Assembly: GCA_051362555.1 (NCBI GenBank)
Contig: CM120642.1
Span: 22,506,001 to 22,570,000, forward strand
Direction: 5' to 3'
Length of the DNA: 64,000 nucleotides
From: Lingula anatina
Taxonomy: Eukaryota; Animalia; Brachiopoda
In this document: positions 3,700 through 60,639 of the stretch, piece by piece
Layout: every line of letters starts with the position of its first letter
Numbering within the stretch: the first letter of the stretch is position 1
Position numbers and translations under genes: made by a program
The notes under the pieces: model-generated
The model's database searches: none
What the model saw: only the letters and a program-made list of their open reading frames with translations
Told to the model about the DNA's origin: nothing

Positions 3700-4113
3700 C
3701 AGGGGCGGATCCAGGATTATTTGAAGGGGGGGGGGTCCGGAACGACAGGCCTCGGATGCGAAGACAACCATCGCCCCCTTGCTGTGGGGTTCGGGGCCTG
3801 CTCAAGGACCCCGAAAATTTTTGGTGTTTTTTAGAGCAAACAGTGCCCCTTGGTACGGTTTAGAAGTATGATTTAGCTAGTCAAGATTCTAATGTCAAAA
3901 GAGGGATATTGGTGTGATATACATGTATTTTTCAGAAACCGAAGGGGGAGTCAGGACCCCTGACCCCCCCTCTAAATCCGCCACGGTTTAGAAGTATGAT
4001 TTAGCTAGTCAAGATTCTAATGTCAAAAGAGGGATATTTGTGTGATATACATGTATTTTTCAGAAACCGAAGGGGGAGTCAGGTCCCCTGACCCCCCTCT
4101 AAATCCGCCACTT
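3700..4113 (+). mobile_element. hAT-like MITE with an internal ~127-bp tandem duplication
   Basis: Termini CAGGGGCGGATCC...AAATCCGCCACTT. 8-bp TSD ATCATATC at 3692-3699 and 4114-4121. Segment 3856-3983 is repeated at 3984-4110. A related copy lies at 6773-7020. Confidence 0.75.
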
Positions 4114-5873: not shown

Positions 5874-6664
5874 GATTCTCAGTGTTTCCCTACTCAGTGT
5901 TTGCTACTCGACAATAGTCGCAAGTGTGATTGATATAGTCCCAATTTCTTCTCCTATTTTCAATCTTTTTGAGATGCGGCAAAAGAAAAAAAATGATCTC
6001 TAAGTATCTCGAGTCATCTGGAGCTACAAGGTGCTGTCATCCAAGGGCCGCTGACTATTTATCGCTATGAAATTACTGCATGCTAGTGATCGTTTGAAAG
6101 GTTTTGTTTGATGACTGAGCTTATGAAAAGAAAACCTTTCAAATATGTATCGGTTTGCATGGGATAATAAATAACAACCATCGAATTACTATGTAAGTTG
6201 ATGACGGCTTACTGTGGACTATTTATTCTCATTAATACGCTCGTCAATAACATATCGATTATGTGAAAAGAAGTCAATATCAGTGTTTTATTTATGACTG
6301 TAAGTATGTCAGTAACGCATAAAGTGCGCCATTTTTGCCTTCTCCATAAAAAGACTTTGATCCCCCCTTCCCCATACGAACCAACATTCTTTTCTCTCAA
6401 AAATGCTTGTTGACAAAAATTGGTTTTTGGCTTTTTTTCTAATAAGTGAGTTCTTTAGACCCACATTACAGCCGACGTTTCAACAGTAAGTTTGGCTGAC
6501 AGTCAACACAGACCAATATCCCTACTAATAGAGCTACGACAAGATGGTCGAACCAATCGATGTGTGGGTGCAAGTTTTCCTAAAACAATAATCCCTAAAT
6601 ATGAGGTAGATCAATTAAATATCTTATAAACAAATACAACTTAAGTTATGTAAACTTTGTGTGT

Positions 6665-21567: not shown

Positions 21568-24500
21568 CAAGAGAGATAGAGAGAGAGAATACTATGAGAT
21601 CCTGCCACAATCACTGGTACCTCCTAAATATAAATGCTTGTGTATTTAAAACTGTTTTAGGTTAGGGTCAGTTACATAGACCAACTTGCTACAACATCAG
21701 AAAGGAAGCAACAGCTGATGGAACAATACTACTTCACATGTAACTGTGTTATGTGCAGAGATAAACAGAGGGTAAGTTTTTATGGACAGCCTATAAATGT
21801 TTACTTGTGAACACCACAAAAGGAAAAGGAAATCACTTATTATTGTACCACCAGCGCCATGCTGCAGTATGCATGATTTTAGTCCCAGCCAGTATCGTCT
21901 GCTGGCTCAACGCATGTCACTGTTACCACTTCCTCCTAAACTACAAGAACCCCTCTTATATGTAGGTCACATAATCTCAATACAAGCATGTGAATTTTGG
22001 GCTTTGTTGGTGCTTGAGTCTAGGTGTGACACTAGTCCCAGTACACCTTTGTCCAAAATTAAATGTTAAATATCTCCCAAACCGAAGAATTTTAAGGAGA
22101 AATTTTCTGAAGATGGCTGGAAGTCATATGAGGAGATTTCAATTATGCCCTTGGATTTGGCCTTTGACCTTAATTTCAAGGTCAAATGGGACAAAATTTT
22201 CTAAAGATGGGAAATGTTTGCAAACAAAAAAAAGATTAAATGTACCAATTTTCAGAAACTACTCAGACCTAACCTATAACATTACAGGCAAGTGTTACCC
22301 TTAGGGTCATCTTTCATTTTTGTGAATTTGGGGTCAATTGGTACATTTTCACGGGAGAAACAGCCATTAGATTGTGAAACTGAAAATTCTCTCTAATTCT
22401 AGAACCATAAAAGCTAGAGACCTCTTGTTTTGCATTTTACAGAGCTTGTCATGCCCAACACTGCAGGTGGTGTCCCTTTTTTTGTTTACCATACAGTTTA
22501 CAAGTTGCACTATATCAAAAAGCACAACGTTGCAATACTCGGTGCTAAAAATAAAATGAAATATAACAAATTTAGCAGAGATGCACCTTTTATTCTGTTG
22601 AACTTGAATAGGAAGTCATATACTGGCAATCGGACTGTGACCTTGAAATTGACATTTGACCTACTTTTCATTAAGAACTGAGCTTTTCAACTTTTCCGTC
22701 CCAATGCTGTTTGCCATTGACCTAACCCCTACTCCCCCTTTTTTTTTTTTTTTTTTGTAACAAAGGAAGGGGGGAGGTTCAGTTTTTTCCATATGCTTAA
22801 AACAGTTAGAAGAGTGAACTCTCTATAATATACCATCCTATCTTGCATCTTACTTGTACCTATAGATTAGTATAATAGTAAACAGTTGACCTTAGACTTC
22901 CTTTTCACCATGAACTTAAATTTGCAACTTTTCTGTCCCATATAATTCCAAAACTACCAGAGATATGCCCAGAGTTACTATTGAACTTGAATAGGAAGTT
23001 ATATACTGGCAATCTGTGTCCATGATATTGACCTTTGACTCAATTTTCATGATGAACTGCACTTTGCAAGTTTTCTGATCTTTATATCTCGAAAACAGCT
23101 AGAGGTACGCCCAAAGTTTTCATTGAACTTGAATAGGAAGTCATATATTGGCAATCTTACTGTGACCTTGAAATTGACCTTTGACCTACTTTTTTATGAT
23201 GAACTGCACTTTGCATGTTTTCTGGCCTTTATATCTCCAAAATTGGCAAAGAAATGCCCATAGTTGCTATTGAACTTGAATTAGGAAGTCATATACTGTG
23301 ACCTTGAAATTGACCTTTGACTTACTTTTTCACCATCAGCTTAACTTTGCCCCTCAAATGCTTGCTCCTCATATGCCCAGTGTTGTTCCTAGGTCTTCTC
23401 TCTTTGTCAGCATATATGCAACACTGCTAACACATTTCAAGGAAAACCAATAGGCCTGTTGTCTAGAAAATCACAGGAGTGATCAATCTGACTAATATAC
23501 AGATAAAGTTCGAAAGGAAAATACAGGTCAAAATGTTCAGACAGGCCAAAACTTTCTAAAATAGGAATTTTTGCAAAACATCCCTAACGAAAAAAGTCTT
23601 ATAGGATCCTATAAGATCCTATAGGAGCCTATAGGAAATTGGGCCAATTTCCTGTAGAATCCTATAGGATTTTATAGGATCCTATAGGACTTTTTCGTAA
23701 GGGAATTCTAATTCTAATTTTTAGAAATTAGCATACGTATACATGTAATATTATGGGCAGGGATCACACTTCGGGTCACTGTCATCTTCGTGAATTTGGG
23801 TCAATCAGTGCATTATCATGCATGGGAGAAGCAGCCATTAGATGCAAAAATTGAAAACTCACTAAGTCTGGAATTGTAAATACTACAGACCTCTTGTTTG
23901 TTGTATCCTTTAGAGTTTGTCAAATGCAGTACTGAAGGTGGTGTCCATTTTATTTTGTTTTCCATCAGTTTGCAGAGGAGTCGATCATCAAAATTTGGTT
24001 GTAAATTAGCCCTGGTATTATTAACACATTCTTAGTAACAAAAATAGGTCACATATAGATCACTTGATAGCTGCGGTGTAGTGAACAAACCATTGACAAT
24101 ATGCATAATAGTTAGAGCGCATTCTCAACGAATTAAGCCAGGCTTTACAAAGCCGGTGACCTAAAAATGGCGGACGTACATGAAAGAAAAACCGCCTAAT
24201 CTTTTAATAGTCTCTCCGCCTCTCACACGCCTCCCCACACGTCATCCCTGCGGGGTACAGTAATTAAATCTCGGCTCCGAACATTAATATTTCCGTGAAT
24301 ATCTCTGGTGATATTATCTCCGTAGATAGTCAATTCATTGCTGCTCTACGGGCCAAATTATTCCTTTTTCGTCTCTGTTTTCAAAGATAATAGAACAGAA
24401 GAGCTTTTTTCCTTCGATCGCCTTCAGCTGCCATGCTTTCTTCACCACGAGTTTAACTGATGAGCTTGCGCACTTAATATTTCTCAGGTTGCTTCCGCAT

Positions 24501-25720: not shown

Positions 25721-28700
25721 CTTATTTGCAATATTAAGGGGGGAATGTACCCAAATATCGCTAAAAATAATCATTTTGGGTTTTTTTATGTCTTATTATT
25801 GGTTAAATGTGTATCTGACGTTTAATGGAATAACCTTTTTACAGTTTGAACAAAAAATGTTTTTTCTGTTGATTTTGATGCTGCACTCATCGGCACGGGT
25901 GGCTTGGTCTGTGTCCCGCCCTCATTGCCAAGGGCCATTGGCATGGGGAAACTCAGTGGGAAGACCTTAGCAGCATGAGCACAACTCGCCAAACAATAAA
26001 ACAGGAACGTGTCATACTCCTTTTGTCATAAACAGCGATAGGCAAAGCATTGATAGTCGCTCTTGATTGTGATCAGCGCTAAGGAGAATCTTTTCTGATA
26101 CATTGGATTTTCTCAGATTACGCTTTTTTCCTTGAATTGGTTGTTGCTATATACATGTACTTCTGATTTTCTTCTTAACATTTGGAGATACGAATAAAAA
26201 AAGAGAAACATTCCACTGCTTGCTACCTGTGACAGCAACCGTCAAACTATCGATCAATCTTCGACAGCAGCTCTATACAGTCGTCAGATTTTATAGATCT
26301 ATGCAACTTGGATCTAGCATTGAGGCACATGTTTATCAAATCTTGACAACTAATGCTAAGCTCTACGATTGACGATGGTGATAATTTCTGTGTTTTGGAC
26401 TTTTTCTGAGCGACATCAACCTAAACATTTTGTCGAATACTGACTGGAATCATATACAAGATTGCTTTGAAAAGACTTGAGCCCATATCCTAGCGTAACC
26501 TTTCATAGAGTGGTGTAAAATTTCAGTACGTGCAAAAAAAAACTAAGCAAATAGAGCAAATAATATCACTAGACTCCATTTTTTGCACGAACAATAGTAA
26601 GCTGAGATCACGTGAGTGCTGTAGTATTTATAACATTTTGATTTTTCAGAATTATTCATCTAAGCAATGAGATATGAGCTGGAAAATAAGCCCTAGCATT
26701 TTCAATCTAAATGCTGGTATACCGCGAGGTACAGTTCTGGATGCATGTATGCACTTTCAAAGCCGACATGTTTTTTTTTCTTCAATAATTATCCTAATTT
26801 CTGACAAACACAACTTTACACATTTCCTCTAACAAGCCCTGCCTGGTCGCTTCTATTTCTTGTTGTTGATGGTCCGAACAGCGTCCTGTGACACGACCGT
26901 GTTTTTGAACCATTTTTTTCGCTTGGCGAATGTGGACAAGACCACCTGCGATGATGCTTTATTGTGTGCACATCCTAGAGCGCATCCCTAACACTTGCCC
27001 CAACATCAATTGACGTGGCCACTGATTGGTTGAGTAATTAGAGCTTAATTGATTGCCTGTCAATCATTCTGGCAGTGCTAGCGGTAATCCCTTGAAGTTA
27101 CTAACAGGAGGTGAGATTGATACAAAAATAAGATTTTCTGACATGCAAATGCATGCAAACAAGCTAATTTCAACCGGCAATTGCGATCGTCAGAATGATA
27201 ACAGGTAAAGCCGTCAACAATTTAATTTGCTATTTTGGACAATAATCTCCCAGAAAGGGTTTTTGCTAGTTTTCTTTGCTTTCAAGATTGACGAGATAGC
27301 ATTATCGGAGCGAGCTGTAACTGTCAACCTGTACACTTGAGGGAGACCAAATTCACCAATCTTATTAAGAAAAGTATGCACTACAAGTGCTTTTAAAAAA
27401 TTTTTGATTGACCCTCTCTTTTCCAATTAATTTTATTGACTTTGAAAGTGAAAATTCTTAATATTTTGATGTCTCTAAAGAAAAATCCCTGACTCCCTTT
27501 TGTAGTACTTTGTTCAAGTGTTATAGTACCATTAAAAGCATTTTTATAGCTGTCCAGGTGCCTGAGAAAATCAGGTGTTTAAAAATGGTGTTTTTGTCCC
27601 CCAAACCCCAATATTACGTCACACGATGAAGTTGGAGCTGTGTTTCATGCATAATTAGATTTTTGAAGATACAAATGTGATAGTGAATGTGATAGGAATT
27701 AAAAAAGCTAAGACCTTTATTATAATTTATTTAATTTAATTTATTTTATTTTAAGAGAAAATCTCTAACCTACATACCCCCCTTAAACAACATTTACCTG
27801 CATAATTATCACTGCTTCCTTATTATGCTTTTGCTTAAAAGTTGTGTGCATTGAGTGTACAGCAAGCTTTAAATTTCATTAGGAGTGTGCTGTTTTAGAG
27901 TAAAACCCTTATCATTTGATTATTTAATATGCACCAATACAAGATACATATACATGCACTGCTATTGACAATTACACAAGTCAAACAAAATACTTCAATA
28001 CACATTTTGCTTTTATATCCATCAATGAGAAATAATCAATGTTTATATAGAATTTTATTATCATATATCAAAGTGGCAATAACACTATGATAAATAATAC
28101 ACTATTTTGAGGTATAAGGATATTTATGTCACAGGCCAGAGAGAAATCCAGCCAAAGTTTAAATCACCCTAGAGCAAATTGAAATTTGTTCTTATTTGGG
28201 AATATGCAGTTTTAGCTTTTCCTTCAAAAACAAACTGCCAACAAGAAAATCAATAACATTATGTAAAGCTAGTTATAAATTCTATTGTTCTAACAAACTA
28301 TGGTGTTTACCTCACTCTAAGTTTGAGAATAAGTTAAGGGCATTGTAAGTCAAACATCAAAAAGAAAAAAGCCTAATCCACCCTTTCAACTCATTCACTT
28401 TAGATGGTGACTGTGCGTTGTCCTTGCTGGGATTAGCGCTGTTGTCTTAAGAGCGCATTCTCAACGAATTAAGCCAGGCTTTACAAAGCTGGTTACCTAA
28501 AAATGGCGGACGTACATGAAAGAAAAACCGCCTAATCTTTTAATAGTCTCTCCGCCTCTCACACGCCTCCCCACACGTCGTCCCTGCGGGTTACAGTAAT
28601 TAAATCTTGGCTCCGAACATTAATATTTCCGTGTATATCTCTGGTGATATTATCTCCATAGATAGCCGATTCATTGCTGCTCTACGGGCCAATTCATTCC

Positions 28701-31700
28701 TTTTCCGTCTCTGTTTTGAAAGATAATAGAACAGAAGAGCTTTTTTTCTTCGATCGCCTCCAGCCGCCATGCTTTCTTCACCTCAAGTTTAATTGATGAG
28801 CATGTGCACTTAATATTTCACAGGTAGCTTCTGCATGGCGAAAGGAGCCGAGATATAATGACTGTACCCCCGCAGGGACGAGGCGTGGGGAGGCGTATGA
28901 GAGCTGAAGAGACCACGCTCGGCTGTCACCTTGATTGGATAGTAAACGATTGTCGTAAAATCGCTAAATGATATTAAAACCGGGTTGATAAACTTGAAAA
29001 CTACCTAGAACAACCTTAGACTGCCACATTAATCCAATACAATACAGTAATTAAATCTCGGCTCCGAACATTAATATTTCCGTGTATATCTCTGGTGATA
29101 TTATCTCCGTAGATAGTCGATTCATTGCTGCTCTACGGGCCAAATTATTCCTTTTTCGTCTCTGTTTTCAAAGATAATAGAACAGAAGAGCTTTTTTCCT
29201 TCGATCGCCTTCAGCCGTCATGCTTTCTTCACCACGAGTTTAACTGATGAGCATGCGCACTTAATATTTCTCAGGTAGCTTCCGCATGGCGAACGGAGCC
29301 GAGATTTAATTACTGTACCCCGCAGGGACGACGTGTGGGGAGGCGGAGGGACTATTAAAAGATTAGGCGGTTTTTCTTTCATGTACGTCCGCCATTTTTA
29401 GGTCACTGGCTTTGTAAAGCCTGGCTTAATTCGTTGAGAATGCGCTCTTAGTCTTCATAAACACAAATGTTTACAAGAAGACATGGGGTGGCCTTATAAA
29501 TACAGAGCTGACTACCCATCCAGAAATTGTCTATTTAATCTGGAAATTTGAAAGTTTGAGCAATCAATATGGAAAATATATTTTTTTAGTCCGGAAATCT
29601 TTAAAGAAAAAATTTGTTGGCCTATATTGATTTTGGCAAAGTCTGCTGAAAGAATCCAAAGCCCAGGCCGAAGATTACATCAAGCTTAACTGCACATATA
29701 CAAACAGTTTTGTGTATTTTCTGAGTCTATGTACACATGCGCAGAACGTTTTGTGCATTTTTGCAACAATGACTACCTCCAAGTAAGCAAGTGCTTTGAA
29801 TGCAGACAATAATAAACCAAATAAGCGTTCTGATTACAGGTGCAATTTTAGTATACTGTATGCTATGATGGAAAATCCTCTTGCTTGTGGTTAAGTCCTG
29901 TAATTCTGTTTTCAAAATCCTGAAGTGAAGATTTATAAATACAAATGGAACCCCCTAAAATATGGACGAAATAAATGTTGTTTTTTAGCAAAATGTAATG
30001 GATTTACATTTTATATGCATTCACCTTAAACATTCGCTATATATACTTTCAAATGAAAACCAAAAAGCAAATAAATTCCACTCATCCAGATTGTAAACAC
30101 TGGCATGCTTTGTCAGTTTCACCTATTCAATTCAAAAAGTGTCCTTTTGCACATAAACAGATGCTTAATTGATTCTTGTAGTTGTCTATGGTTGAATATG
30201 GTATGTGGTTGTAGAGCAATAAAGAATGGAAGAAACCATTAAAATTAGTTTACATTTTTTCTTATATAGCATCACCTGCAGAGGTTCTTTCTCATCTGCA
30301 CACAAGCAACAATGGCACACACAATCTATGCTAGAGAGGAAATATCTAAATTGATGAAGATTGGCACCATGTCAGTCATGGCCATGTCAGTTTTAAGGAC
30401 ACACTACAGATACAACCATTGCACAGTTATCTGGAAAGCCACTGACTGGTCTCTTTTATCATCATTGCACGTTTCAACTTACTTCGTGTGTACAAGTGCA
30501 GGGACAAGTTATTTATGTCCATTCTTCTTAATTAAAAAAACAACAACAATCCTCTGTTCTTGACTGCACATTGTTAGCACCAGTGCCACTTACAGCTTAC
30601 AAGTTTGTGATTGAAGTCAAATAGTTATGTCCCTATCTTATATGAATGGATCCATAGAAACTGTGCTAACTTGACTCCCAGATCGATTCTTTGGAGCTTC
30701 CTCAGATTCAGAAGCTGTAAAAACATAGATATATATTTTTATTAAAGTGACAGTTATGCCATAAGACTAGCATATAGATTTAGAATGTGAAATTAATAGC
30801 CTTAGGCAAGCTTTTAGGTCATTTTAAACTATACAAAAATCATATATTTCTTCAGATAATGAATAATCTAACCTATCTTGTTAATGTCTGAGCCACACTG
30901 AGATCTTTCTGCAAGCTTGTTAGTATAAAATTAATGAAACACTTGATCTGTATAAAAATTTTAAAGATTAATTTCAATTTTGGGTAGTTCAGTCCTATCT
31001 AAACAGTAAGGTGGTTGTATTAAGGACCTACAGGTAGTGTACATTTGATTTTTGAAAGTAAATCAGTATGAATGGGAAAATAGAATCTAAATATTGAGAA
31101 ACAAATTGAAAGTTACTGTTCAGTGATTTTATGGTCTTGTTTAGATAGTTACAACAATGGTAACAGTATCACAAATATAAGATGCCATTCAATGAAAAGA
31201 TGCAGAGATCAGTCAAAAATGATCAAAACGTGACATGAATAAGGTACTGTAAGGTAATTGCTAATTTATTTGGAAAGGTCCTTTTTTGTGTATCTTTTCC
31301 ATTGTAACCTTAATGAAATAGATTAATTATAACATGGAATCTTAATCATCAACAGTTGCCCACCATTTTTTTCCTTCCTGAAATGGCCTTTGTGAATGCA
31401 TTCCCATGCTAGGATGACCAGCACAATAAACAGCCATAAAGCCCAACCAGCAATTAAGATGGTTAAGGTAGCACCTGTCTCCATCAGGGACTTGGCAACA
31501 TCTGCAGACTTTCCTGACCAGTGCTGAAATTGAAATTCCATAATTATGATACAGTGTAGCCTTATCGTGACCTTCAGGATTAAGGCTAAATGTGAGGGTT
31601 AAAGTGAGCATTTAAAGTCTAATTATGTAATCGAGCCATACTGTCACACAGAAGCCATCAGCAGCACTGAACACCACTGTATGGTGTGAGAACAATGAAA

Positions 31701-32201
31701 ACATCCCTTAGCAGAATGTCAGACTGGTTGCAATATTGCTGCAAACTTTTCATTTTGCTAAGGAGTGTGTCATAAGCATATAACAAAGAATATAACAAAC
31801 ATTAGCATATAACAAGATAACTATATTAGAAAGGTCTGATATATGTGAACATTCACACAGAAATTTTACCTTTTTCTTGCCTGGCTCATCTGTAGGATCA
31901 AACTTTTGCTGGTGTTGCCGGATATATTTAGAAAAGCACTTGGTTCTACTTCTGGGTACATTCCTTATGTAAAAGCCCAGCATAGCCTCTTGTGGGATCA
32001 TCTTCACATACTGAAGATTCCCTCCGTGTAATTCGTGTAAAGCTGTGTGAAATTCTAGCATTATACCAGTGATGTTTGCGTTGTCATGTAGTTTCTTCAT
32101 AAGACAAACAACATTGTCACACACTACATGAATTGAGAAAGGGAAGAATAATTAAATTATTGTTACGTTTAGAATTGAAGGCATACGACATAAATTACAT
32201 C

Positions 32202-32245
<44 letters not shown>

Positions 32246-35200
32246 ACAAGATCAAAAGATGCAAACTGTAATAGCGGCCTATTATATGGACATTTTCAGC
32301 TTCAGGAAAACTTTTGAATCCCTGATCCTTTGATGCGCAGTTCAGTGCACCAAACTGCAACACACTGAAGTATATCAATGTCTGTGTCTGGAGCCACATT
32401 CATAATAGATGCTAACTGGTTCGCAGATCAAGTATGGCCTTCCCCACTTGAAAGTGATGCCGCATAATTTGCTATTGGACTCCCTGCCTACCAGATGCAC
32501 CAGGCCTGCAGGGGCCTAACAATAAATAACTAAATCTCTGCTACATGTACAAGGTTTTTATTGCTATTTCCCTGCAGGGCTGGTGTGTGGGGTAGGCAGG
32601 GAGACCATAAGGGGATTAGCAACATTGCTTTCAAGTGAGGTCTTACACATCTGTTCTAAATATTGCCTCACATTCTTCAACTTCATTTAACACACCTTTC
32701 CAAACTTCATTAATGTACATTTCTTAGCTGATCAGCTCATGTTGTGTCACAGTGCCATACAACGAGTAGAACTGTCGCTTCATTTTTGCAGTAATCAATT
32801 TGCAGTAATCATTTCTAGTGTACAGATCAAGTGTTTCATTAATAAAACTATAAAACTTTCAATAACTATGTAGTACCTGCATGCATTAATAAGTGCACAG
32901 GATATTTTCTCATAAAGGTTGACTGTACATTTGTCATTTTGGCTTGTTTTTTGTGAAGGGGGATGAATGGCTATGTTTTGGTGGAAAATTATGCGAAGAT
33001 CTATCAAGTCAGAACAAAAAATGTGGATTAATAAGAGGGACATGTATTGTTGTTAAGAAGTCTGTGTGTGTATGCATTGCCAGCCATGTTATGCCTAAAC
33101 CTACCTGTCACGGAGGCCCCAAGTCCCTCTGCTAACATGGCTGCTTCTGTTCCATCCAATACACCAACCTGAAATAGGCCAACAAATATTTAACTTTCAA
33201 CAAAAATGCAAAAAGTGTAAATCATCAAAGCTTTATGATTCAACAGTATGTGTATAGTCTGTCAGAGTAAAAAATAAAAATCCACTGTATTGCCATCTTA
33301 AGATTTTTCAGGTCAATATGACTGTATAATTTTGTAAATATATATATATTTTTTAATTGAGAATTGAATATATCTCAAAATGTGCTGAAAAACAGTAATG
33401 TCTTACCATTGCCCCTTTTAAATCAATAGGGACATTGTTGGCAAGCTGGTCAGCTGACAGTGATGTAGTTAATGTAGCAGTAAAACATGTGACAAGAACA
33501 ATGCCAGTCATGATCCAGATGGTACCAAAGAATTTAGCTAAGAGGGATTTAGGGACAACATCTCCATAGCTGCAAAATAAATATAAAACGAGCAACCTGC
33601 AGGATATAAAATGCATTTTTTTTACTTTGTTCCCCTTTAATGTAAAATAAAATGTTTTGAATTTTGATAATTGAGCCTCTTGATTGATTTAACTGTCATG
33701 TGTAAATCTCACTATCTTGCCAAGCTGTGACATACATGTACATGTACTTCAAGTGTCGGAATGTTTTGAACGTGTGGCCAGCTGTACAGCATTCTTGCTT
33801 TTACTCACCCTACTGTTGTCATGGTAACAAAGGCCCACCATATGCCTTCCACATATCCACTGCTGAATTTTTTGGGGAATTGTTCTGGATTCTTTAGCCT
33901 GTCCTTATATAATATATAAAAATAGAGGTAAATATTTATATGTGTCATAAGTGGTTTGTGTTGAGGGGTGTAACTAAGTTCAATCTAGTGGATTCAATAT
34001 CACAATAAAGGGTATAGGAGGAGATAAGCTTGTGCTGGAAGTGTGTATGTCAAATGAAGTCGAATGGGGAAAGACTTGAAGCCTGGTCATTTTTAGCTGG
34101 AAGTACACAAGAGTGGAGCCTTGAATGTGAAGTTGAAGCAGATTTTTTGGCACCATGGTAAGATAATATTTTTCTTTTGGCACTTTGAGCTCAGAATACT
34201 TGTAGAAATATGGGATATATGATACGAAAATATGTAACGAAGCTTGAAGGTGCAAAATTGTGCTATTTTCAGTTATCTTGTTTTCTAATAACTTGCTGCA
34301 TCGACCGATAGCACAACAAAAAAACATCATGAGAAAAAAATCCTGCGAGGCTGTAAATGCTGTCACATGTAATTTTTGCATGTATGCGAAGTGACATACC
34401 CGTATCTAATTATTGTTTGGTGTTTTATGGTAAGATCCCAACTAATAGTTAAATTGTACCAAACCATGATATATTTTTTTCAATATTGTGACAAATCTTT
34501 AGATAGTTAAAGATGCATACAAAGTCAATTTTTGTCACAAAAACCAAACAAATGCCAGCATATAGTTTCAAGTAGTATAACTAAGAGAATTACCAAAAGG
34601 CATTGTTTAATTTTACCCGAAAATGATGTTTGAACGGATTTTTCTGCTGGCTCTCTAAGCTGAATGTCAATGGGGCAGGAAAGTAGGTCACAAAAGTAGG
34701 TTAAATTTACAACCAAAAATTTAAAGAAAGGAGCAGTCTAAAGGTCTTTTATGGCTGATCGAGTGATCTATTCAGTTTATCCCTTGGCTTTTCGAATTTA
34801 TTTGAGTCATATAAGAATCTGGTAGAAGTGGTTTACATGTGTTACTGGGAATTCACACTCCACCGATGCTCCGTTCGTATGTACCTTTAAAGGACAATGG
34901 CCATGCCGTCAGAATGGCCTGAACGGAACATATTCTTCAGAAAACATGCCCAACTAATGATATCTTTATCCAAATACACTGATTAAAAGGTCATTTTGTA
35001 AATTTTTGGCTTTAAAAGACGTCCTATTTGCTTGGCCTGGGAGTTAATGAGCTACGTGGTCACATGGTCCGATGATGACAATCGTGCTACCGGGGGAAGA
35101 GAGCGTGCTTAGCTGTCAAACTGAGTTGCATTGTCTACCTGTAACATGACTTTTCTGGCTTCTGATAAAAGCTCATACTCATTCAAATCTCTTACCCGAG

Positions 35201-38200
35201 GGGTCTAAATCCTTGTGAAGCTGTGTAAAACCATTTCCCGTCTATTCAATTCTTTAACAAGCATTTAATTATGGTTATCCCAAGTTGTATAAAACACTGC
35301 ATTTGAATGACTTAGGGTACTGTTGATTATTGCATGTGATGTCCATGTTATTTATGAAATTCAATTTATTTAATTAAACCACTGACACCCGTCTTGCATA
35401 CTTTTATTTAACTGAGGTAAACAATGCCTGTTACCTGTACAAGTCATATCTTAATCATCCATCTAACTGGAACTTCCTTTACCTCTTAATTAGAGGGTTA
35501 AATGGCATTCAATTCTCCTGTAGCCTTTGTCTTGCGAGTATCGAACGCACTCACGCTGGCGATATTTATCTCAGGTAAAAATCTACCTGTGCGTTAGTTT
35601 CAAAGAGCAGCTCCCGCAGACCTGGGGGTACTAGATAAAATCTGAACACCAGGTTTATCGAGGAGCTAGAGAAACAAAGGAAGAGTTTTTCCTGCACAGC
35701 TTCATAGGAATTTTAACATGGACTTGATCCAGCTTAAACCTCCAAACTAACAGGGTGACATGGGCAATTTTCACAAACAAATAATAAAACTATATTTCAG
35801 TTAGCCTCCTTTTAAATAAATATACGGTTCTGGGTAAATTAGAATATTTATTAAATCGCGAGAATATTTTTGACTTAAATGATGATTTTATTATTAATGG
35901 AAATTAAGCTGCTACTAGTATATGAGGTATATTTGCTGTGACTACGCTGTCCTTCATGTTTTGCGTTAGTCTACATTTTGCTGTACGTGCTTGTTATTTT
36001 TCAAAATCTGTACGTACAATTTTTGCAGGTCTGGTTACGCCCCTGTTATGTGATGAAAGTCTAAATTTGGCAATTAGTTCCTTAGCTTATTTAAATAGAA
36101 TTGCAGTGTAAAATTTTCAACAAGATATTGGCGCAATAGCTCTTTACTCTTTGTGGATATTTCCCCCGTCAAAGTTTGTCTAAAATTATCTTTCAATCTT
36201 TACTCTTTCAAGGACAGTAAAATGTTATCTGACATATTTTCGTGAAAACTTAATGACAAGCCAAGTGTCTCCAGTTCATTCCGTACTCAATTTTACCCAA
36301 GCAAATTTATTTCTTGAGTAGATCTTTATAGCACGGTGTTATAATACAATTTTTCGAAGAGCTGATTTAAATCAATATTAAAAAAATTGTAGCTTCATAC
36401 TTAAATGAATTGGGTATCTCCCGCTTTTCATAATATACTAAGTTATTAGTAGTGCTCTTTTTTACACCCAACATTCTTTTAAAAAATCCATTTGTGGCTT
36501 TCTTATATCCCTTACCAGGTTAAATCTCCATGCATAATTTAAACGTATGTAAAACTGCACATTTAGTAAACACATAAAATTAATGATTTCTTCCATGCTA
36601 CTTGTAGCAAACAATGCTCCTTTACCTTGATCTGCTACATGTTTTTGAGTTTGACAAAGCTTACAAATTTGCAAAAAGTTTTGCGTACAGACGCAGAATT
36701 TGCGTTTCAAGTTATAAAATGATAAATCTTTTAAATTATTTAATATTTCAGATGAAATAACCTTCAGAAACAAATCCTCAAAGCATAAACAAATTAGGAT
36801 TACGAACCTTTTTATTACAGCAGTTCCCATTTTTTCTTTAAAATACCGCTCGTTTTCTTCCACGGAAGTAATGCCTGGGCATACGCATGCTTCAAGATAC
36901 CCTGAGAGCAATTTCTTCTATTAATGTTCGCGACCGTGTTTGAACTTAATTGTTTAAATATTGATATTTAACGTCATTTACAAATACCAATAAAATAACC
37001 TCATGAAATAAATGAGATATATTGAAAAATATGAAAGCCCACCAAGACGAGTTTGATACCTGTTATTACCTGGCTTGGGAATTGCAGTGGTGCATAATTA
37101 ACAGGTTTTATTGTTAACGAGCTCTTGGTCAACTGCAATGCATTTAAAATGCATCAGCAATTAGTAAGCTTGCCAGCTGATGACAGTTAATCTAAAAGAC
37201 TATCAGCTTTTGATATGATCTAAAACACCTGAGGTGACCAAGATCTCGAGCATCGCAACTATTGTCACCGAAGTTAGTAAGTCACGGAAGACAGTCACAG
37301 ACAAAGAAAGAATTGTCAAGGAGTGCTGCAATTTTGATGAATCCCACGGCAACACACTGAGGCATAACGAAAATTGCTCAACTCCATTCAACACAACTTT
37401 CCTAAACTATTCTGTCTGTATGCACCATGCAGCTCAGTTAAGTCTCATAGACCTTTATCCTCATTGTCATCGCAGTACCACGTGACCCAGATCTGTTGCT
37501 TCATTTATGCATATTGAGGTGAGGTTTACTAAAACGCTTTTTTTCTACTAATAGATTGTTTTTATAATTCTTAAATGGCGGGGATCGATTAAAACATACC
37601 TCTAGCGTATAGATTGAGTGCTGAATCTTTAAAATTCAAGAAATGGATTTTTATGTGTCTATTGTCCTTTAAATATCAAGCTACCATATGAAAATCTGCT
37701 TCAACTTTGCACTCCACTAGTGTGTACTTCCAGTTAAAATGGCCAGGCAGCTTCACGTCTTACACCATTTGACATCCAATGATGCACATTTTCGGCACAA
37801 TCTTATGTCCTCCTGTAACCCTTTATTAAAATTAGAATATATCTTAAGGATCAGATTGATCCAACTCTGCAATCAGATTAATAAATTTAACATTCCTCCT
37901 CTAGATTACTTGTTTAATCACCAGCTTTTTTTGCATCCTACTCACCACCTGGAGAAGGCATGTCAATGTCAATCTGTTAATCTTATTGCATTTAGCAATA
38001 GTCTCAGTGGATAGATCGTTGCATGAAAGTTTCATTGGGAATGAGCCCTTACACATCGATACTTAATTCATAATAATAGAAACAGTTTTTTATATTTATC
38101 TGCCAACTTTTGAAGTAAAACACTAGCAAACCACATGGTTAGTTTTATTAAAATGATAATGTACATATGTATTGCAAGATCTGCAATGCTTCCCCCCCCC

Positions 38201-38515
38201 CCCACACCCACACAAAAACTAACACACATGCTTAATCCCTTCAACAATTTCACCACTCACTGCAATCCAAATAATGATCCCAGCAAAGCAAGCGGCCAGA
38301 AGGATAATGAGGGCTAATGGCCAGGCCTGGAATATTGCAGCACCTATGGGATTTATGTCTTCATCTTGTCTTCCTAAGTAGATGAAACCTAAAAAAAAGA
38401 CAAGTCATTTAAGTATGCTAGTTGTAATGAATAAAAAAATGAAAACATTTCCTGTTTTTTTTTAAAGAAAAAAGAGTCTTACTTGCTATTTAGAATTTCT
38501 GAGTGTGTGTGTGTG

Positions 38516-38558
<43 letters not shown>

Positions 38559-39717
38559 GAGGGGTGGGGGTAACCAATTATTGTTTTTGCAGATCTAATT
38601 ATTGATTTTATTGGTGGATTTGCATGGAGAGAGAGCTAAAGGACAGAAAAAATCCTTAATTTTTAATGACAGGATGACTTTTCAAACAGGTTAATATACA
38701 GGGCCCGGTTGCACCAACAGGGCGTAAATTTACTTGGCTACGACTGTCGTAAACCGCAACGCCTGGCATCCGTGCGCCAGGTTTACTCTCCCTGATTGTC
38801 TTAACTATGCCTGAGTAATGCTCCATTGCGTCACTGGCCAACAATAAGTGGATGGTATAATTGGGCAAATGAGGAGTTCTCAGCTGCAGTCATAATGGAA
38901 TGATGACATAAATAAACACAAAAGGAATATTTCAGTAACGGAGAAACTCATAAGCTACATTATTCCATTTTGATTTAGAAATAAGAACATTAAAATATGT
39001 TAACATTGCTGTGGCCTTGGATATATAGCAATAAAATGGTAAATATATTCCGAATCAAAGTATTATTATAGTATGCTACTATAGTATGCTGTTGTAAATG
39101 AGAAAAAACGCGATGGAGGCAGTATGTATTCCTATTAATATATTTGAACACCTTCACATTTGTTTCTGAAACGTTTTAGCCTGAAAATAATGCAAACATT
39201 GCACCTTTAATGCCAACATTGCTTTTTTTTCAAAATTTTACAATGGTGTCGACAATTTTATGACCTTGTTTCTATGGTTACACTGTGAGGTATCATTTAA
39301 TTCAATCGAGCTTACATCATGTAGATAAAGACTGCATTCACAACGAGTTGAGCCAGGCTTTACAAATCCTGGGGACTAAATATGGTGGACGTTCATGAAA
39401 GAAAACCTCCTAATCTTTTAATAGTCTCTCCGCCTCTCACACTCCTCTCCATGCGTCGTCCCTGCGGGGGTACAGTCATTAAATTTCGGCTCCATTGGGA
39501 CGACACATGGGGAGGCGTGTGAGAGGCGGAGAGACTATTAAAAGATTAGGTGTTTTTTCTTCCATGTACGTCCACCATATTTAGTCCCCAGGATTTGTAA
39601 AGCCTGGCTCAACTCGTTGTGAATGCGATCTAAGAAATACAATAGACCTAATACATTTTATGTGAGCTTTAAAATGTTGATATCCTAAGCTTTCGTCTCT
39701 ATGTTTATATATAGTAA

Positions 39718-39779
<62 letters not shown>

Positions 39780-42700
39780 GTTTAAAAACCAACTATACAG
39801 ACGGAAGTTTTGTGGAAGAAACAAACAAATAACAACTCACATTTTCTATGTTAACTACGATAATTGCCATCAAACGCTCTCTGTGACAGCCTAGCTATAG
39901 TGGAAAACGAGCTACGACCGACTTACACCACCTAGCTGGCAGGTGTAAATTTACGACTAAGTTAAGACTGACGTAAACACTATTCCAGTTTGGTGCAACT
40001 GGCTTTTCTCGGGCATAGCATTTTGTGCCTGGTTTATGCCGGCGCAACTGCTACGCCTCACTTATGACCGGTTGGTGCAACCGGGCCCAGAAGAATATAA
40101 GGCATACAAATATTACAGTAAAGGAGGAAACCTTTCCATGTGGATGGGTTTCAGCCAAATGTTGATGTGAGAGATAACATGAAACTTAAGTCAACATTGG
40201 GCTTACACCAGAGACTATACCCGACCCAAGACTTTTCCTCACCTGGTGACTTGATCAGAGGGACAAACAGCACATCATCATCTGGCAACTGAAATACCTG
40301 TTCAGCCACACTCCTCCTCATTGGAACTGCTATAGTCTCATTAGTCCACTCTTGTAACACACTGTACTGGTCTGACCCCTGGTGGCAATAAGTCACAGTA
40401 ACATTTCCATAGCATTTATTCATGACTTGGTCAATAAGAGATGCCAGTAGGCCTTTCATCTCTTTGTCTTCGTCATCTTCCAAGTGTATCAAGGGTGGCA
40501 GGTCATACCATATTGCACTCACTGTGATGTTGTCCTTCACATATTTTGCACAAGAGTTGTCATCATCATGGCTGTTCCTTCCATGCATTATTGGAATAGT
40601 AAGAATCAAAATGTGGCAAAACAAAACTGGGCTGATATCAAGCTTCATCATATAATACCCTTTGAGTTTTATCTTTTTTATGAGTGCATACAATCCTTTT
40701 TGTGAATTAAATAACTTCCTCTTGCAGTTTCACATGTGTTATTGAATTTTTAAAATACCATTAAAATGATATTTGTCCTATGTTGAAAGTGATATGTCCT
40801 TGCCTACTGAATGTGACTTATTTGTTGACTGGATTTTGTTGTATTCCATTTTTGGAAATGAAACATATTCCAGTATCCTAGGTTTGTTTTAACTCTTGCA
40901 TATGACAATCTTTTCATCTAACTTTTCATGGGAAATTTAGTGGTGTAACTTCTACTTCAGCTGTAAGAGAATATGTCGGTACATATATATATATATATTT
41001 ATGTTTTTTTGTCACTTAAAATTGAAATAGATTTTTAAATAGTTGTAACAAGGAGATTGTTTTTAACCAGTCCATGCCCCAGTTGATCAGATTGATGACT
41101 ACAGTTTGGCTGCACAGTTTGATACTTGGTTAATACTTGTGCAGTTATCACAACCAAAACATCCCTTGGGTAACCCCTCTAAAACCTGTACTGTAGCTTA
41201 CCTAAATGCCTATATTATATATACACTTCAAAATTAAAAAAAAAAAAAATCTGTTTAATTCATGACCACCTGGCAGTGAGAAATAAGAGTAAGATAACAG
41301 AAAAATGGGTGGGTCTTTATTCAATACCAAGCTTCCAAGAACAGAATACAATAGCGAAAATTCATTTAGTGGTCAAATGTTTCCATACACAACCAAATTT
41401 TTAATACATGTGATTTATCATTGAAAAACAAACAATAAGATTGGGAATTGGATCAAACAATATAATTCTGAAATCTACCATTCCTACTGTGCATTCAAAA
41501 GATTATTATAACTGTGATGGCTCAATAAGACTGGTGCAATCCATCAGTCAGGTAAATTGTTTTCAAAATGTGATTTTTTCTTTGGCTAACATTTACAACA
41601 TTGTCGTTACACTTTCATTGTTTTTAAGAGACTCTCATAAATGTGGAAAAACAATTAAACCATAAATATGTGGTTTATGTAATAATTGCTGGAATATATC
41701 AAATTGGCAGAACAGTATGGATACACTATTGAAGTCTGATACTGCAAGATCATAACTAATATCTCAAGCTGCAAGGGTTTTATTAATAATAGTCAATATT
41801 ACCCCTGCTCAAGGAGGCATGCTAGGCAATTAAGAAGCTGGTTACACTGAAAGCACTAATTTTAACATAATTAGCAAGTAGCACAGAAGAGTTAGATCGA
41901 TCCAGCTAGTATGATGGGTTTATGGAAATTAATTAAGGCAGTCCTAGGTAAAAAGCTTATATCTGGCCAAAAATTACGATCTTGTAATTTGGATGTGTAA
42001 CTATCATCATTTTATTTGGAAGCTATGTTTAGTTAGTAGAGCAAGGACTCTATAAGCTGTATTTATGATCCTGAAATTATATAAACACACACAGACACAC
42101 ACACACACACACACACACCAGGATCATTGACCTACAAGGTATAAATAAATGTGTTTCCACAGTGTGTATGTTTGCCCTCCCCCTTATACATTCTCTTTTG
42201 TGAAGATTTAAGCTGTATGTGTAGTTAAATCTAAACAAGCACACCAACTTAATATATGTAACTGTTTCCAGTTCACATCATGATCAGTTCACACATGAGT
42301 AAGTTAGTCACAGACTATAGTCTGCCGAATACTCACCTTGTTAGGGGTGTTTCTAAAACTCCTTCTCTATAATAATACAAGAATACACTTATCTCTATCT
42401 GCGGTCCCATTGGCTTTGTGGCTCTATCACTGTTATCATTGTGTATGCATACAAGTCCCTGTGCATCATGTGATTAAAGATGTCAAATGAAGTACACTGT
42501 ATGTCTTTGCTGATTGGTAAATAATTTATGCTTCAGATTACTACCGGGAGAGTGAGTACAAGTCTTAGTTGGTCAAAGGAGCACTACATATCAGTTGCAT
42601 ATAAAGATTTATCAAGAACTGAGTTTGCTAGATTGATCTTGTTAGAACAATTTATGTAAAGTGATGGTTGTTGTTACTTATTAACCCATTCATGTTAGGT

Positions 42701-45700
42701 CTTATTATAACTGTAAAGTAAATTTTACAGACATTTTGGAGTTGTTGCTGGTTCATGGCTACTAAAATGTATACTAATGATTGCTTTCACGTCCAACCTT
42801 AGTGATGTATATTTGATGTATATTTAGGCTACTTGGCAATTGTAATAAAGAAAGTTACAGTGTAGTAATAACCATTGCAGATCCCCCAGTTGATATCTAT
42901 GGCAATGCCTTGGTTCATTATGTATATACGGGCTTATTATTATCACTGGAAAGAAGTTTTGGTCTTGTTACTTCTAAATTTTTAGATTTCAAGGTATGTT
43001 GGTCAGTTGGATTGTTTGTTTGTTTGTTTGTCTGTTTGCACTCTACAGATCACAATTTTTATCATATATCACTTCTATTTTTTTCCCTGAACAGATATCC
43101 GAAAGAGCATGTGACTGAACTTTTTTGGAGTCAGTCTGAGTATTTTTTCCAGGAGAAATGGCTATATGTGCTAAAACCAAATACTCTTTCAAATTCAGGA
43201 AATGTTAAAGCTAGGGAACTCGTGTTTTGTGTTTTGTAGAGAAGTCAAGGACCACACTGGAGGTTGTGTTGTTTTTATGTATAGACACAGACGTCATCAC
43301 TGTCGTCATCAGTATCATCACCTTCATTCAGTGTTATAATGATAAGTGAAAAATATTTGCCCTTTTGTTTTCAAACTTACAGAACTGATGAATATTCATA
43401 AAATGCTGCTTAATTGGAAAACAAGGTTAATACAGAGATAGTCCAAATCATTCAATCTATGTATAAACAATTGAAGTCAAGTATACAGATGAAAGATGGT
43501 ATATCTGATTATTTTGATTGTACCATAGGCACCAAACAAGGCTGCATGTTAAGTCCATTTATGTTTTCTCTATTTCTAAATAAATTTGTATATATGTTAA
43601 GAAATGATGAAAACTGTAAAGGCTTTTTCGTAATTGAAGATGCACCTAACATCTCATATTTGCTCTTTGCAGATGATGCAGTAGAGATAAGTGACACGGT
43701 CGGTAGCTTGCAAAAGCTTATAGTAAAACTAGAAAATTTCTGCAAAAAATATGGCATGATGATCAACATAGATAAAACAAAAATTATCATATTTAGATGA
43801 GGTGGTTATTTAAATAAACATGAAAGATGATTCCTAAATAATGAGGTAGAAATTGTTAGCCACTATAAGTACCTAGGGCTGATATTATCAGCTTTTTTGC
43901 CCTGGAGCAAAGCTAAGAGTACCCTAGCACAGCAAGGAGAGAAAACCATGAATATTCTGATATACTTTATCAGAAAATTTGACGTGCCTTTGACTCAGTC
44001 GCTATATTTGTTTGATCATGTTGTTGTACCAACTCTGTGCTATGGAGCTGAAATTTGGGGCTTCGAGAAATGTGATCAAATAGAAATAGTTCAACATAAA
44101 TTCTGTTAAAAATTATTGGGGCTGAGTTCAAGGACATCAAACGTCATGGTCCTCGGAGAACCTGGTAGATTACCATTGTATCCAGTTTACACTATACAAT
44201 GTATTAAGTATTGGCTGAAATCGATTAGGATGGAACCAGAGAGGTACCCCAGAGCTTGCTATAATATGTTGTGTACACTAGATGAACATGGAAAGACTAA
44301 CTGGGTGACTAAAGTGAAACAAATAATTAATATGTATGGTTTTGGTTATGCATGGATAGCACAAGATATGGGTGATATAAATACCTTTGTAAGCCAATTT
44401 TTACTAAGGCTGAAGGACTGCGCTAGACAAAATTGGGTTGAAAACATACAAAATAGTCCAAAACTTTGTGAAAACTATGCATTGTTTAAGAGTTTGTTAG
44501 AACCCGAAAAATATTTATTTGATGTAAATATTAGGAAGTACAGAGTAGCATTTACAAAATTCAGAGCTTCAAATCAGAGACTTGCAATAGAAACTGGTAG
44601 ACATGAAAATTTACAAAAAGTAGATAGGTTGTGTAAATATTGCTTAGAGAAATATATTTCCGAAATTGAAGATGAGAAGCATTTTTTTACTAGTTTGTTT
44701 ACGTTATGAGGAATCGAGAGCTCAGTACATTCCTAATTTGAATACTAACAATACATCTTCAAATTGTTATATTTCTATGATGAAAACAAAAAATCCTGAT
44801 GCTCTGAACAACCTTGCTAGATTTATTTATCATGGTTTGAATGCTAGAGAAAACTGATGCAAAATGTCGAACTGTAACTTTGTGATGTATTTGCTATGGG
44901 CCGGTGTCCTTTATCAATTGAATTGCTTAATTGGACCATTTTCCGTAAGTAATGCCCTTTTTTATTTTTTGTTTTTTTTTTTTGCTTTTTTTTCAGAATA
45001 TTTTATCCACCATTATACAAATACAATGAAAACCGTTTGCCTTTTGTCTGCAAATTTACAAAACTGATGAATATTCATAAAATACAGGTCAAGTTTGATA
45101 ATCAGTTTGATAGGACAATTTTTCCATAAATTATGCTTTTTTTGTTTCTTTCAGCATATTTAATCCAATAATACAAATAATGTGAAAACTGTTGAAATTT
45201 TAATTAAAACTTGCAGGACTAATTCATAGGACTAATGCATAGATCAGGTTTGAAATTATCTTGTTTATCTTGTTTAGTTTTGATGAAGTTATACTGTTTT
45301 TTAGTAAGTGGTTTTTCCACAGATTTATTTTAAGGAATGTTAATAGTCTCATTATTGAACTAATTACAAATGTAAAAGTGTTCTTTTGACATTTTCTGCA
45401 TCTTAACAATTTTGTTAGTTGATTATATAAATTGATGGTAAATCTGTTATCATGCATTGTGTAATAAAGAGTCAAAAGTGGAAATAAATTCATATCAGTG
45501 CAGTTCGTCAACTTCAATCTTTCACTTTGTTCAAAATCACTATGTTCAATAGAACAAATTTAGCAAAATGGACAGTTATACTTGTTCTGTTGATATTTTT
45601 ACCGTGTCAACAATTTTGTTAGTTGATCATTTAACAAGGCAGCAAAACTTGTGAAAGTACAGACAAAAAGCAGAAAATATAGATGCACAAAATAGGCTTC

Positions 45701-55046: not shown

Positions 55047-60639
<5,593 letters not shown>

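Follow-up and report, generated by a model that had tools for sequence, protein, structure and literature searches.

Whether an animal can build a channel from the ligand-binding clamshell of ionotropic glutamate receptors (iGluRs) and the selectivity filter of a K+ channel, and what such a channel would respond to, is the question raised by a spliced gene in a 64-kb stretch of DNA from Lingula anatina (hereafter the window). The original prediction had described its product as a GluR0-like receptor, after the prokaryotic channels of that name. We find that the protein is almost certainly a real subunit of an iGluR-superfamily channel, that the two halves of its extracellular region are predicted to unite as a periplasmic-binding-type clamshell closest to the GluR0 core, and that it belongs to a large animal family in which the ligand-anchoring arginine of the prokaryotic receptors is largely missing. 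On balance, and by analogy with characterised channels, we favour a channel subunit that would pass mainly K+ and would be opened by an extracellular small molecule other than a standard amino acid.

Gene structure and protein architecture

The receptor gene lies on the minus strand and comprises eight exons, running from an ATG at 40651 to a stop at 30638. Its coding chain of 1350 nt specifies 449 aa plus the stop, with no internal stop, compatible intron phases and GT..AG borders at all seven introns, such that the intact eight-exon frame originally proposed proved exact in its coordinates. The spliced product (P0001) is identical, letter for letter, to RefSeq XP_013384319.1 (L. anatina LOC106154502 isoform X1, annotated as 'uncharacterized'), which is an agreement between two predictions. 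Exon 1 (40243..40651, aa 1–136) harbours the ATG, a predicted signal peptide (residues 1–24) and S1, one half of the clamshell, in which P110 and E117 lie, whilst exon 2 (38261..38388, aa 137–179) carries the end of S1, the pre-M1 segment and M1. Exon 3 (33809..33903, aa 180–211) encodes a loop, the pore helix with a WW pair at 201–202 and the first half of the filter, TTVG (33819–33809); the filter codons are interrupted by intron 3 and resume as YGD (33568–33560) in exon 4 (33407..33569, aa 211–265), together with the inner helix containing G233 and CFTATLT, and the linker to S2. The start of S2, including VGVLDGT with T272, is found in exon 5 (33105..33168, aa 266–286), and its body in exon 6 (31870..32123, aa 287–371), with C349 and with E310 at the position of the amino-group-binding Asp/Glu. 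A linker and the extra, M4-like transmembrane (TM) helix follow in exon 7 (31364..31523, aa 372–424), and a short tail and the stop in exon 8 (30638..30714, aa 425–449). No second copy of the gene was found within the window. An alternative first coding exon, also on the minus strand (42337..42410), is annotated for isoform X2 (P0121); it joins exon 1 at 40577 and substitutes residues 1–24, thereby removing the hydrophobic N-terminus, with no clear signal peptide seen by eye in its place. This exon could be an artefact of the gene model, or else belong to an isoform that is targeted differently.

The order of elements is as had been described: signal peptide, S1, M1, pore helix with TTVGYGD (208–214), M2 with CFTATLT (239–245), S2 with DLKG (260) and VGVLDGT (266), an extra TM segment and a short tail. 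Hydrophobic stretches occur at 1–24, 148–183, 219–248 and 386–417, the first of these being a signal peptide as predicted purely from hydropathy, and the glycosylation sequons N41, N83, N104 and N303 are located in S1 and S2. Approximately 40 residues precede S1, and the amino-terminal domain (ATD) clamshell of eukaryotic iGluRs is absent, as originally claimed; a Pfam scan of the 449-aa protein matched no ATD family. The same scan returned Ion_trans_2 (1.1e-15), Ion_trans (2.5e-11) and Lig_chan (8.3e-10), but not SBP_bac_3, and S1 and S2 gave no Pfam match from single exons. Sequence matches in the Protein Data Bank (PDB) are K+ channels and cover about 139–256 only, and the Pfam matches likewise do not reach beyond this pore region. 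The features of Kv, KCNQ, BK, Kir and K2P channels (voltage sensor, T1, RCK, cytoplasmic Kir domain, tandem pores) are not found, and the flanks of the pore are predicted to fold as a clamshell; a conventional K+ channel identity, named at the outset as one outcome that would overturn the prediction, did not emerge. The clamshell did not appear among the 60 of 370 PDB matches listed for a 22-row family profile, all of which were K+ pores, and an Atlas search with residues 256–420 gave only leads under 0.9. Because sequence searches miss the S1/S2 clamshell in this way, the case for it is built from profile–profile and structure comparison.

Predicted fold

PDB sequence matches to GluR0 and to GLR3.4, the alignment extending through M4, came from a 45-row profile that includes bacterial and algal rows and so are not independent; for this reason an animal-only model was built from an alignment of 36 family rows without bacteria (pLDDT, the predicted local distance difference test, 81.7). 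It was compared with a mixed model from the 45 rows, 12 of them bacterial and one algal (pLDDT 81.4). Both unite residues 39–145 and 257–366 as one class II binding-protein clamshell. Against 48,161 representative chains, residues 39–368 of the animal-only model match the GluR0 core (1IIW) at rank 1, with Z 19.0, a root-mean-square deviation (rmsd) of 2.9 Å and 202 aligned residues, and the mixed model likewise ranks 1IIW first (Z 20.8, 206 aligned). Further matches of the animal-only model are 2PYY (Z 17.4), amino-acid-binding proteins (up to 16.9), the rotifer receptor AvGluR1 (15.2) and animal iGluR cores (13.9–15.3). The bilobed binding fold that had been foreseen is therefore present in both models, with the GluR0 core as its top structural match, and a likeness to GluR0 is further borne out by the TTVGYGD filter and the missing ATD. 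Comparison of 22 family rows with 18 GluR0-type rows by profile–profile alignment gave a probability of 100 and an E-value of 8e-51 over 316 columns. When the whole chain was compared by Foldseek with the ligand-binding and transmembrane domains of AMPA and NMDA receptors, about 430 columns were aligned (E 7e-13), with template modelling scores of 0.34–0.41 and rmsd values of 11–17 Å; these scores are low because domain orientation differs.

A four-fold, tetrameric pore is also predicted. Four copies of the pore module (148–256) scored 0.57, compared with 0.00 for the best of three controls, with at least 90 % contact agreement between runs and pLDDT of at least 71. The mark that this score passes was attained by 20 of 30 solved pairs and by 1 of 23 single chains (17 of 29 for eukaryotes, 7 of 16 for animals), and the result probably reflects likeness to solved K+ channels.

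Family and phylogeny

Word-based searches retrieved a protein of Owenia (E 2e-51), then many cnidarian proteins and then bacterial GluR0-type proteins, whilst the first-ranking clusters in the Atlas were three of mainly cnidarian membership, with 76, 85 and 154 members. An exhaustive profile search found 977 representatives at E ≤1e-30; the listing comprised the best 150 (E <1e-68), and the 138 of these that had not been retrieved before, together with 31 earlier rows, make up a family set of 169. Names were obtained for 14 of 20 new rows looked up (Saccoglossus, Glandiceps, Ptychodera, Exaiptasia, Paramuricea, Sanderia and eight from Nematostella), bringing the named rows to 24 of 169. All 24 are animals (cnidarians, the annelid Owenia and three hemichordates), Nematostella contributes at least 10 distinct genes to this named set, and we infer an animal origin for the remaining 145 rows. 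The original suggestion of a poorly characterised invertebrate family thus stands with regard to the family itself, which is nonetheless large and old, spanning cnidarians, an annelid, the brachiopod Lingula and hemichordates.

Long relatives, cnidarian members among them, carry additional domains ahead of the clamshell–K+ pore module. In 22 that were scanned, 15 possess FN3 arrays, four CUB plus Ig (P0182, P0200, P0202, P0214), one EGF repeats (P0178) and two nothing extra, with an ATD in none. The FN3-type members span 670–4100 aa (e.g. P0229, P0269, P0235, P0207, P0221, P0247, P0227, P0298, P0228); some also carry laminin G, pentraxin, MAM, F5/8, TLDc, TSP1 or SEA domains, and three that were looked up are Nematostella RefSeq models. 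A CUB domain in an iGluR-like chain resembles the Neto/SOL-1 auxiliary subunits. Most long fusion members cluster together in a FastTree tree, which argues against random fusion of gene models. Possible N-terminal fusions were also seen in four bacterial GluR0-type frames (L070, L076, L079, L080), which have 260–830 extra upstream codons in the same stop-to-stop frame.

Three trees (81, 200 and 59 rows) were made by quick IQ-TREE or FastTree runs with Shimodaira–Hasegawa (SH)-type support only, and hold the family, bacterial rows and one algal row, without iGluRs, protostome ionotropic receptors (IRs), plant glutamate receptor-like proteins (GLRs) or AvGluR1. In all three the animal family is separated from the GluR0-type bacteria and the alga by a long branch with support of 100. 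Under a mixture model (59 rows, SH-aLRT, the SH-like approximate likelihood ratio test), Lingula groups with Owenia (95), the three hemichordates group together (100) and join one more family row (92), and all of these form a six-member branch (97) whose sister (92) contains a conserved anthozoan group. P0232 was placed amongst the bilaterians in a FastTree run, but not under the mixture model. The branch of Lingula relatives matches the species tree, and points to a gene that was already present in the cnidarian–bilaterian ancestor. On the favoured reading, the family would have diversified in cnidarians, with the Lingula gene as the bilaterian orthologue in which one of its branches survives.

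With regard to deeper origin, descent would have been either vertical, from an M4-bearing eukaryotic form, or by an old bacterial transfer. A form of the former kind is exemplified by P0026, a 635-aa protein of the green alga Tetraselmis with a clamshell, TTVGYGD, the S1 arginine, a hydrophobic post-S2 TM segment and no ATD, which is a possible eukaryotic intermediate. Chlorophyte, diatom and giant-virus clusters with similar features were observed in the Atlas.

Conservation of the pore and binding cleft

Counts were made over the 169 family rows and 93 bacterial rows. The filter T-[VIL]-G-[YF]-G is found in 163 family rows, and its columns are close to invariant (G211 and D214 169/169, Y212 and G213 168/169, T209 165/169), with W202 in 149 and G233 in 147. 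CFTATLT shares three of seven residues with the SYTANLA gate motif, the T-A within it (T241 137/169, A242 123/169) being the same as in bacterial Group 1, to which pore identity is 35–46 %. A hydrophobic helix after S2, at 386–417 in Lingula, occurs in 155 of 169 family rows (13 lack it, some being fragments, and one was not assessed) versus 0 of 92 bacterial rows assessed; correspondingly, 79 of the 80 loci from bacteria contain a complete GluR0-type open reading frame (ORF) whose end lies no more than 9 residues from S2. The claim of an extra, M4-like TM segment is thereby extended to most of the family, and this helix is either homologous to iGluR M4 or an independent gain.

The binding cleft is less like that of GluR0. 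P110 falls in the column that we take, in GluA2 numbering, to be P478, and proline is found here in 161 of 169 rows. Seven residues further on, arginine is present in 6 of 162 family rows, or in 17 if the neighbouring position on each side is counted too (background arginine frequency 4.3 %), versus 83 of 93 bacterial rows. Lingula has E117 at this site (A116 or Q118 in other registers) and no arginine anywhere in 114–126, and Owenia likewise has a glutamate at the canonical site. According to the accessible text of Ger et al. 2010 (PMC2950845), this S1 arginine, which binds the alpha-carboxyl group, and an S2 aspartate, which binds the alpha-amino group, are totally conserved in prokaryotic receptors. 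As the arginine, a carboxylate-binding residue in iGluRs as well as in GluR0, is missing in Lingula and across the family, gating by glutamate appears unlikely, and 'GluR0-like' does not equate to glutamate-gated: the label holds for fold, order and filter, but not for the carboxylate-binding residue. Other cleft features are retained, in that Ser/Thr occupies the S654 position in 141 of 169 rows (T272 in Lingula). Two cysteine columns, C80 (83/169) and C349 (120/169), are absent in bacteria and suggest a family disulfide.

Relationship to known receptors

The closest known system is GluR0 (Synechocystis Slr1257; Nostoc) with the other prokaryotic Group 1 receptors, which share the S1-M1-P-M2-S2 order, TTVGYGD, a compact clamshell and the lack of an ATD; GluR0 is the top structural match and GluR0-type proteins are the best non-animal sequence matches. 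The animal family differs by its own cysteines, its extra TM segment and tail, the loss of the S1 arginine, splicing (in the Lingula gene) and its long separate branch. In the available sections of Ger et al. 2010 (PMC2950845) the combination of clamshell and K+ filter is known only in bacteria. AvGluR1, as portrayed in the accessible parts of PMC12332018, PMC3483616 and PMC11479355, is an animal protein with a TXVGYG filter, clamshell and M4, but it has full eukaryotic iGluR architecture and is gated by amino acids, whereas the Lingula family has neither ATD nor S1 arginine, and the animal-only clamshell lies nearer to GluR0 (Z 19.0) than to AvGluR1 (15.2). Metazoan iGluRs (AKDF, NMDA, epsilon, lambda) and plant GLRs share the LBD-TMD-M4 layout (ligand-binding domain, transmembrane domain, M4) and the T-A of SYTANLA; the Lingula family, in contrast, lacks an ATD and has a K+ filter in place of their Q/R/N pore. 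It is absent from the iGluR clades named in the accessible portion of the PMC12226733 phylogeny. Protostome IRs, going by the available text of PMC2924276, similarly have a short N-terminus, divergent clamshells without glutamate-binding residues and lineage-specific expansion, making them a likely functional parallel; the Lingula family differs in its K+ filter, its GluR0-like compact LBD and its cnidarian and hemichordate members. The Tetraselmis protein and algal clusters share the clamshell, TTVGYGD, post-S2 helix and lack of ATD (as judged for P0026), but P0026 keeps the S1 arginine and lies outside the animal branch. The Lingula protein would act like GluR0 plus an M4, but it departs from Group 1 in its missing arginine and added M4, and from eukaryotic iGluRs in its pore and missing ATD, and it is placed in neither.

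No description of the family was found in the open full-text literature, including the accessible parts of PMC2950845, PMC2924276, PMC6307864, PMC11479355, PMC12332018, PMC3483616, PMC12226733 and bioRxiv 2021.01.27.428399, key subscription papers lying outside this search. Five family accessions and the filter string were not found in the readable supplements of PMC12226733, and none of these occurs in the 12 supplements of PMC6307864, a weak negative as the alignments there are partial. The family is probably undescribed.

Proposed mechanism and alternative explanations

Each subunit would consist of a split clamshell, a K+-type pore and an extra TM segment, with four subunits forming the channel. 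The signal peptide would place S1 and S2 outside the cell, and the pore loop would enter from the cytoplasm, inverted relative to Kv channels and KcsA. By extension from GluR0 and iGluRs, a ligand would close the clamshell, pull on the linker between S2 and the inner helix and open the gate at CFTATLT, whereupon K+ efflux would hyperpolarise or shunt the cell. Taken separately, a K+ preference of the pore seems likely by analogy, gating by a small molecule somewhat more so, and, if so gated, a ligand outside the standard amino acids would be favoured with similar confidence; the weaker preference given to the combined proposal at the outset takes into account dependence among these estimates. 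That the channel would be K+-selective and therefore inhibitory, as had been put forward, we likewise infer by analogy. The cleft would have no positive anchor, with acids kept or gained (E117, E273, E310), making an amine or other cation our leading guess as to the ligand. Within cnidarians, the variable clefts of the radiation suggest a chemosensory repertoire.

A number of observations weigh against this proposal. Chief amongst them is AvGluR1, which has the TXVGYG filter and yet is Na+-permeable in the accessible text of PMC3483616. Conservation of the filter in the family is partly an ascertainment effect, since the filter lay within the search profile. In the cleft, the S2 acid column (E705 position, E310 in Lingula) is acidic in only 103 of 169 rows (D 92, E 11), and a conserved reversal from arginine to an acid, which looked good in 36 rows, was seen in 31 of 162 in the larger set, fails in hemichordates and remains a hint only. 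The S-x-x-E pattern may be a plain helix cap, R112 or R113, two to three residues from P110, may substitute for the lost arginine, and the placement of the E117, E273 and E310 side chains in the cleft is putative. Compared with its orthologues in Owenia and hemichordates, the Lingula protein has an end of S2 (aa about 357–375, window 31870–31910, minus strand) that looks less helical and some 8 residues short, with low pLDDT at about 367–381, so the border of exons 6 and 7 may be imperfectly predicted; a frameshift or other acceptor that would lengthen this end, sought by eye, worsened the length fit. Finally, no exon–exon joint was present among the 15 of 46 joints listed for 28500–41200 in four of nine raw-read runs with the species label (6–30 % of each run). 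Mean RNA depth in the same runs was 0 to 0.6 in repeat-free exon bins, the deep bins being intronic repeats and the X2 exon lying outside this stretch.

The alternative that survives best, though we consider it unlikely, retains the ligand-gated build but gives it a non-selective cation pore like that of AvGluR1, rendering it excitatory. Besides the Na+ permeability just mentioned, the extra TM segment and inverted orientation resemble those of eukaryotic iGluRs. Against this, the entire K+ module is kept (WW, TMTTVGYGD and the hinge glycine), the identity to Group 1 noted above is to the group of the K+-selective GluR0 (available text of PMC2950845), and AvGluR1 is itself called K+-selective in the accessible part of PMC11479355.

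Less likely still, the clamshell may no longer sense small molecules. The channel would then be a background K+ conductance, or would open under the control of a partner protein, a tether or force, with some resemblance to delta-type receptors. The arginine was indeed lost with no conserved replacement, and FN3, CUB-Ig or EGF adhesion-type domains precede the clamshell in 20 of 22 long relatives scanned; the Lingula protein, however, has no such extension, its fold is complete and well predicted, and the Ser/Thr at the S654 position and proline at the P478 position are largely maintained.

An amino-acid-gated K+ channel like GluR0, in which R112, R113 or backbone groups replace the canonical arginine, is improbable. 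The top structural matches all bind amino acids or their derivatives, T272 and E310 are in place, and Owenia also has an arginine 3 residues past the proline, but arginines of the R112/R113 type are not conserved in anthozoan or hemichordate orthologues, and the canonical site holds a glutamate in both Lingula and Owenia.

That the gene is an artefact, whether through contamination from bacteria or cnidarians, wrong joining of the model or silencing as a pseudogene, would fit the lack of spliced reads among the joints listed but is scarcely credible. The frame is intact and all seven introns are canonical, the neighbours are of animal type (ankyrin repeat, MYND finger, SURF4 and a reverse-transcriptase fragment), the intronic repeats are common to RNA runs of the same species label, the closest relatives follow the species tree, and the bacterial loci are almost all GluR0-type ORFs stopping just past S2. 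The animal origin first argued from the introns is upheld.

Other features of the window

The window is animal DNA of approximately 35 % GC, and a scan of 142 reading frames gave domain matches in five. On the minus strand are an ankyrin-repeat frame of 520 codons (4344–5903, Ank_2 E 2e-32) and the two exons of a SURF4 gene (55050–55634 and 58037–58360, E 3e-69 and 3e-33). On the plus strand are an exon-sized frame for a MYND finger (13736–13945, E 9e-6) and, just upstream of the receptor gene, a broken reverse-transcriptase remnant (43414–43797, RVT_1 E 3e-15) within open frames at 42817–44706. Interspersed repeats at about 34500–34890, 35000–37800, 38680–40050 and 28500–29770 draw many RNA reads with 90–99 % likeness and loose ends; the elements near 28500–29400 and 39350–39630 are related, and 39352–39633 has an inverted-repeat layout. 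Tandem arrays are located at 3855–4111, 15682–16327 and 22886–23298, with periods of 128, 160 and 142, respectively.

Implications

In animals, direct gating of a K+-selective channel by a ligand from outside the cell is not known to be established, and the short single-chain proteins of this family therefore offer a direct test of whether it exists. Reviews, in their accessible parts, treat GluR0 and the AvGluR1 of rotifers as lone intermediates between K+ channels and glutamate receptors. An intron-bearing family that has more than 100 diverged, probably cnidarian clusters, and whose orthologous branch reaches Spiralia and Ambulacraria, alters this view and is relevant to when M4, the ATD and Na+ permeability arose relative to one another. 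Adhesion-type K+ channels, if the long fusions are true, would be a separate finding. As a tentative proposal, possible rather than probable, cnidarians and bilaterians may share, alongside iGluRs and IRs, a third inherited lineage of ionotropic receptors that has M4 but no ATD, is selective for K+ and is opened directly by extracellular ligands other than amino acids. This lineage would comprise a chemosensory radiation in cnidarians, giant K+ channels tethered by FN3, CUB or lectin domains, and one surviving orthologue in brachiopods, annelids and hemichordates, and would give animals a rapid, ligand-gated form of inhibition carried by K+ instead of Cl-. The short single-chain proteins are also candidates for the receptors behind those chemical senses of cnidarians that still lack an explanation, and might serve as a scaffold for silencing cells chemogenetically; family members in Nematostella, Hydra and Clytia put expression and knockout work within reach.

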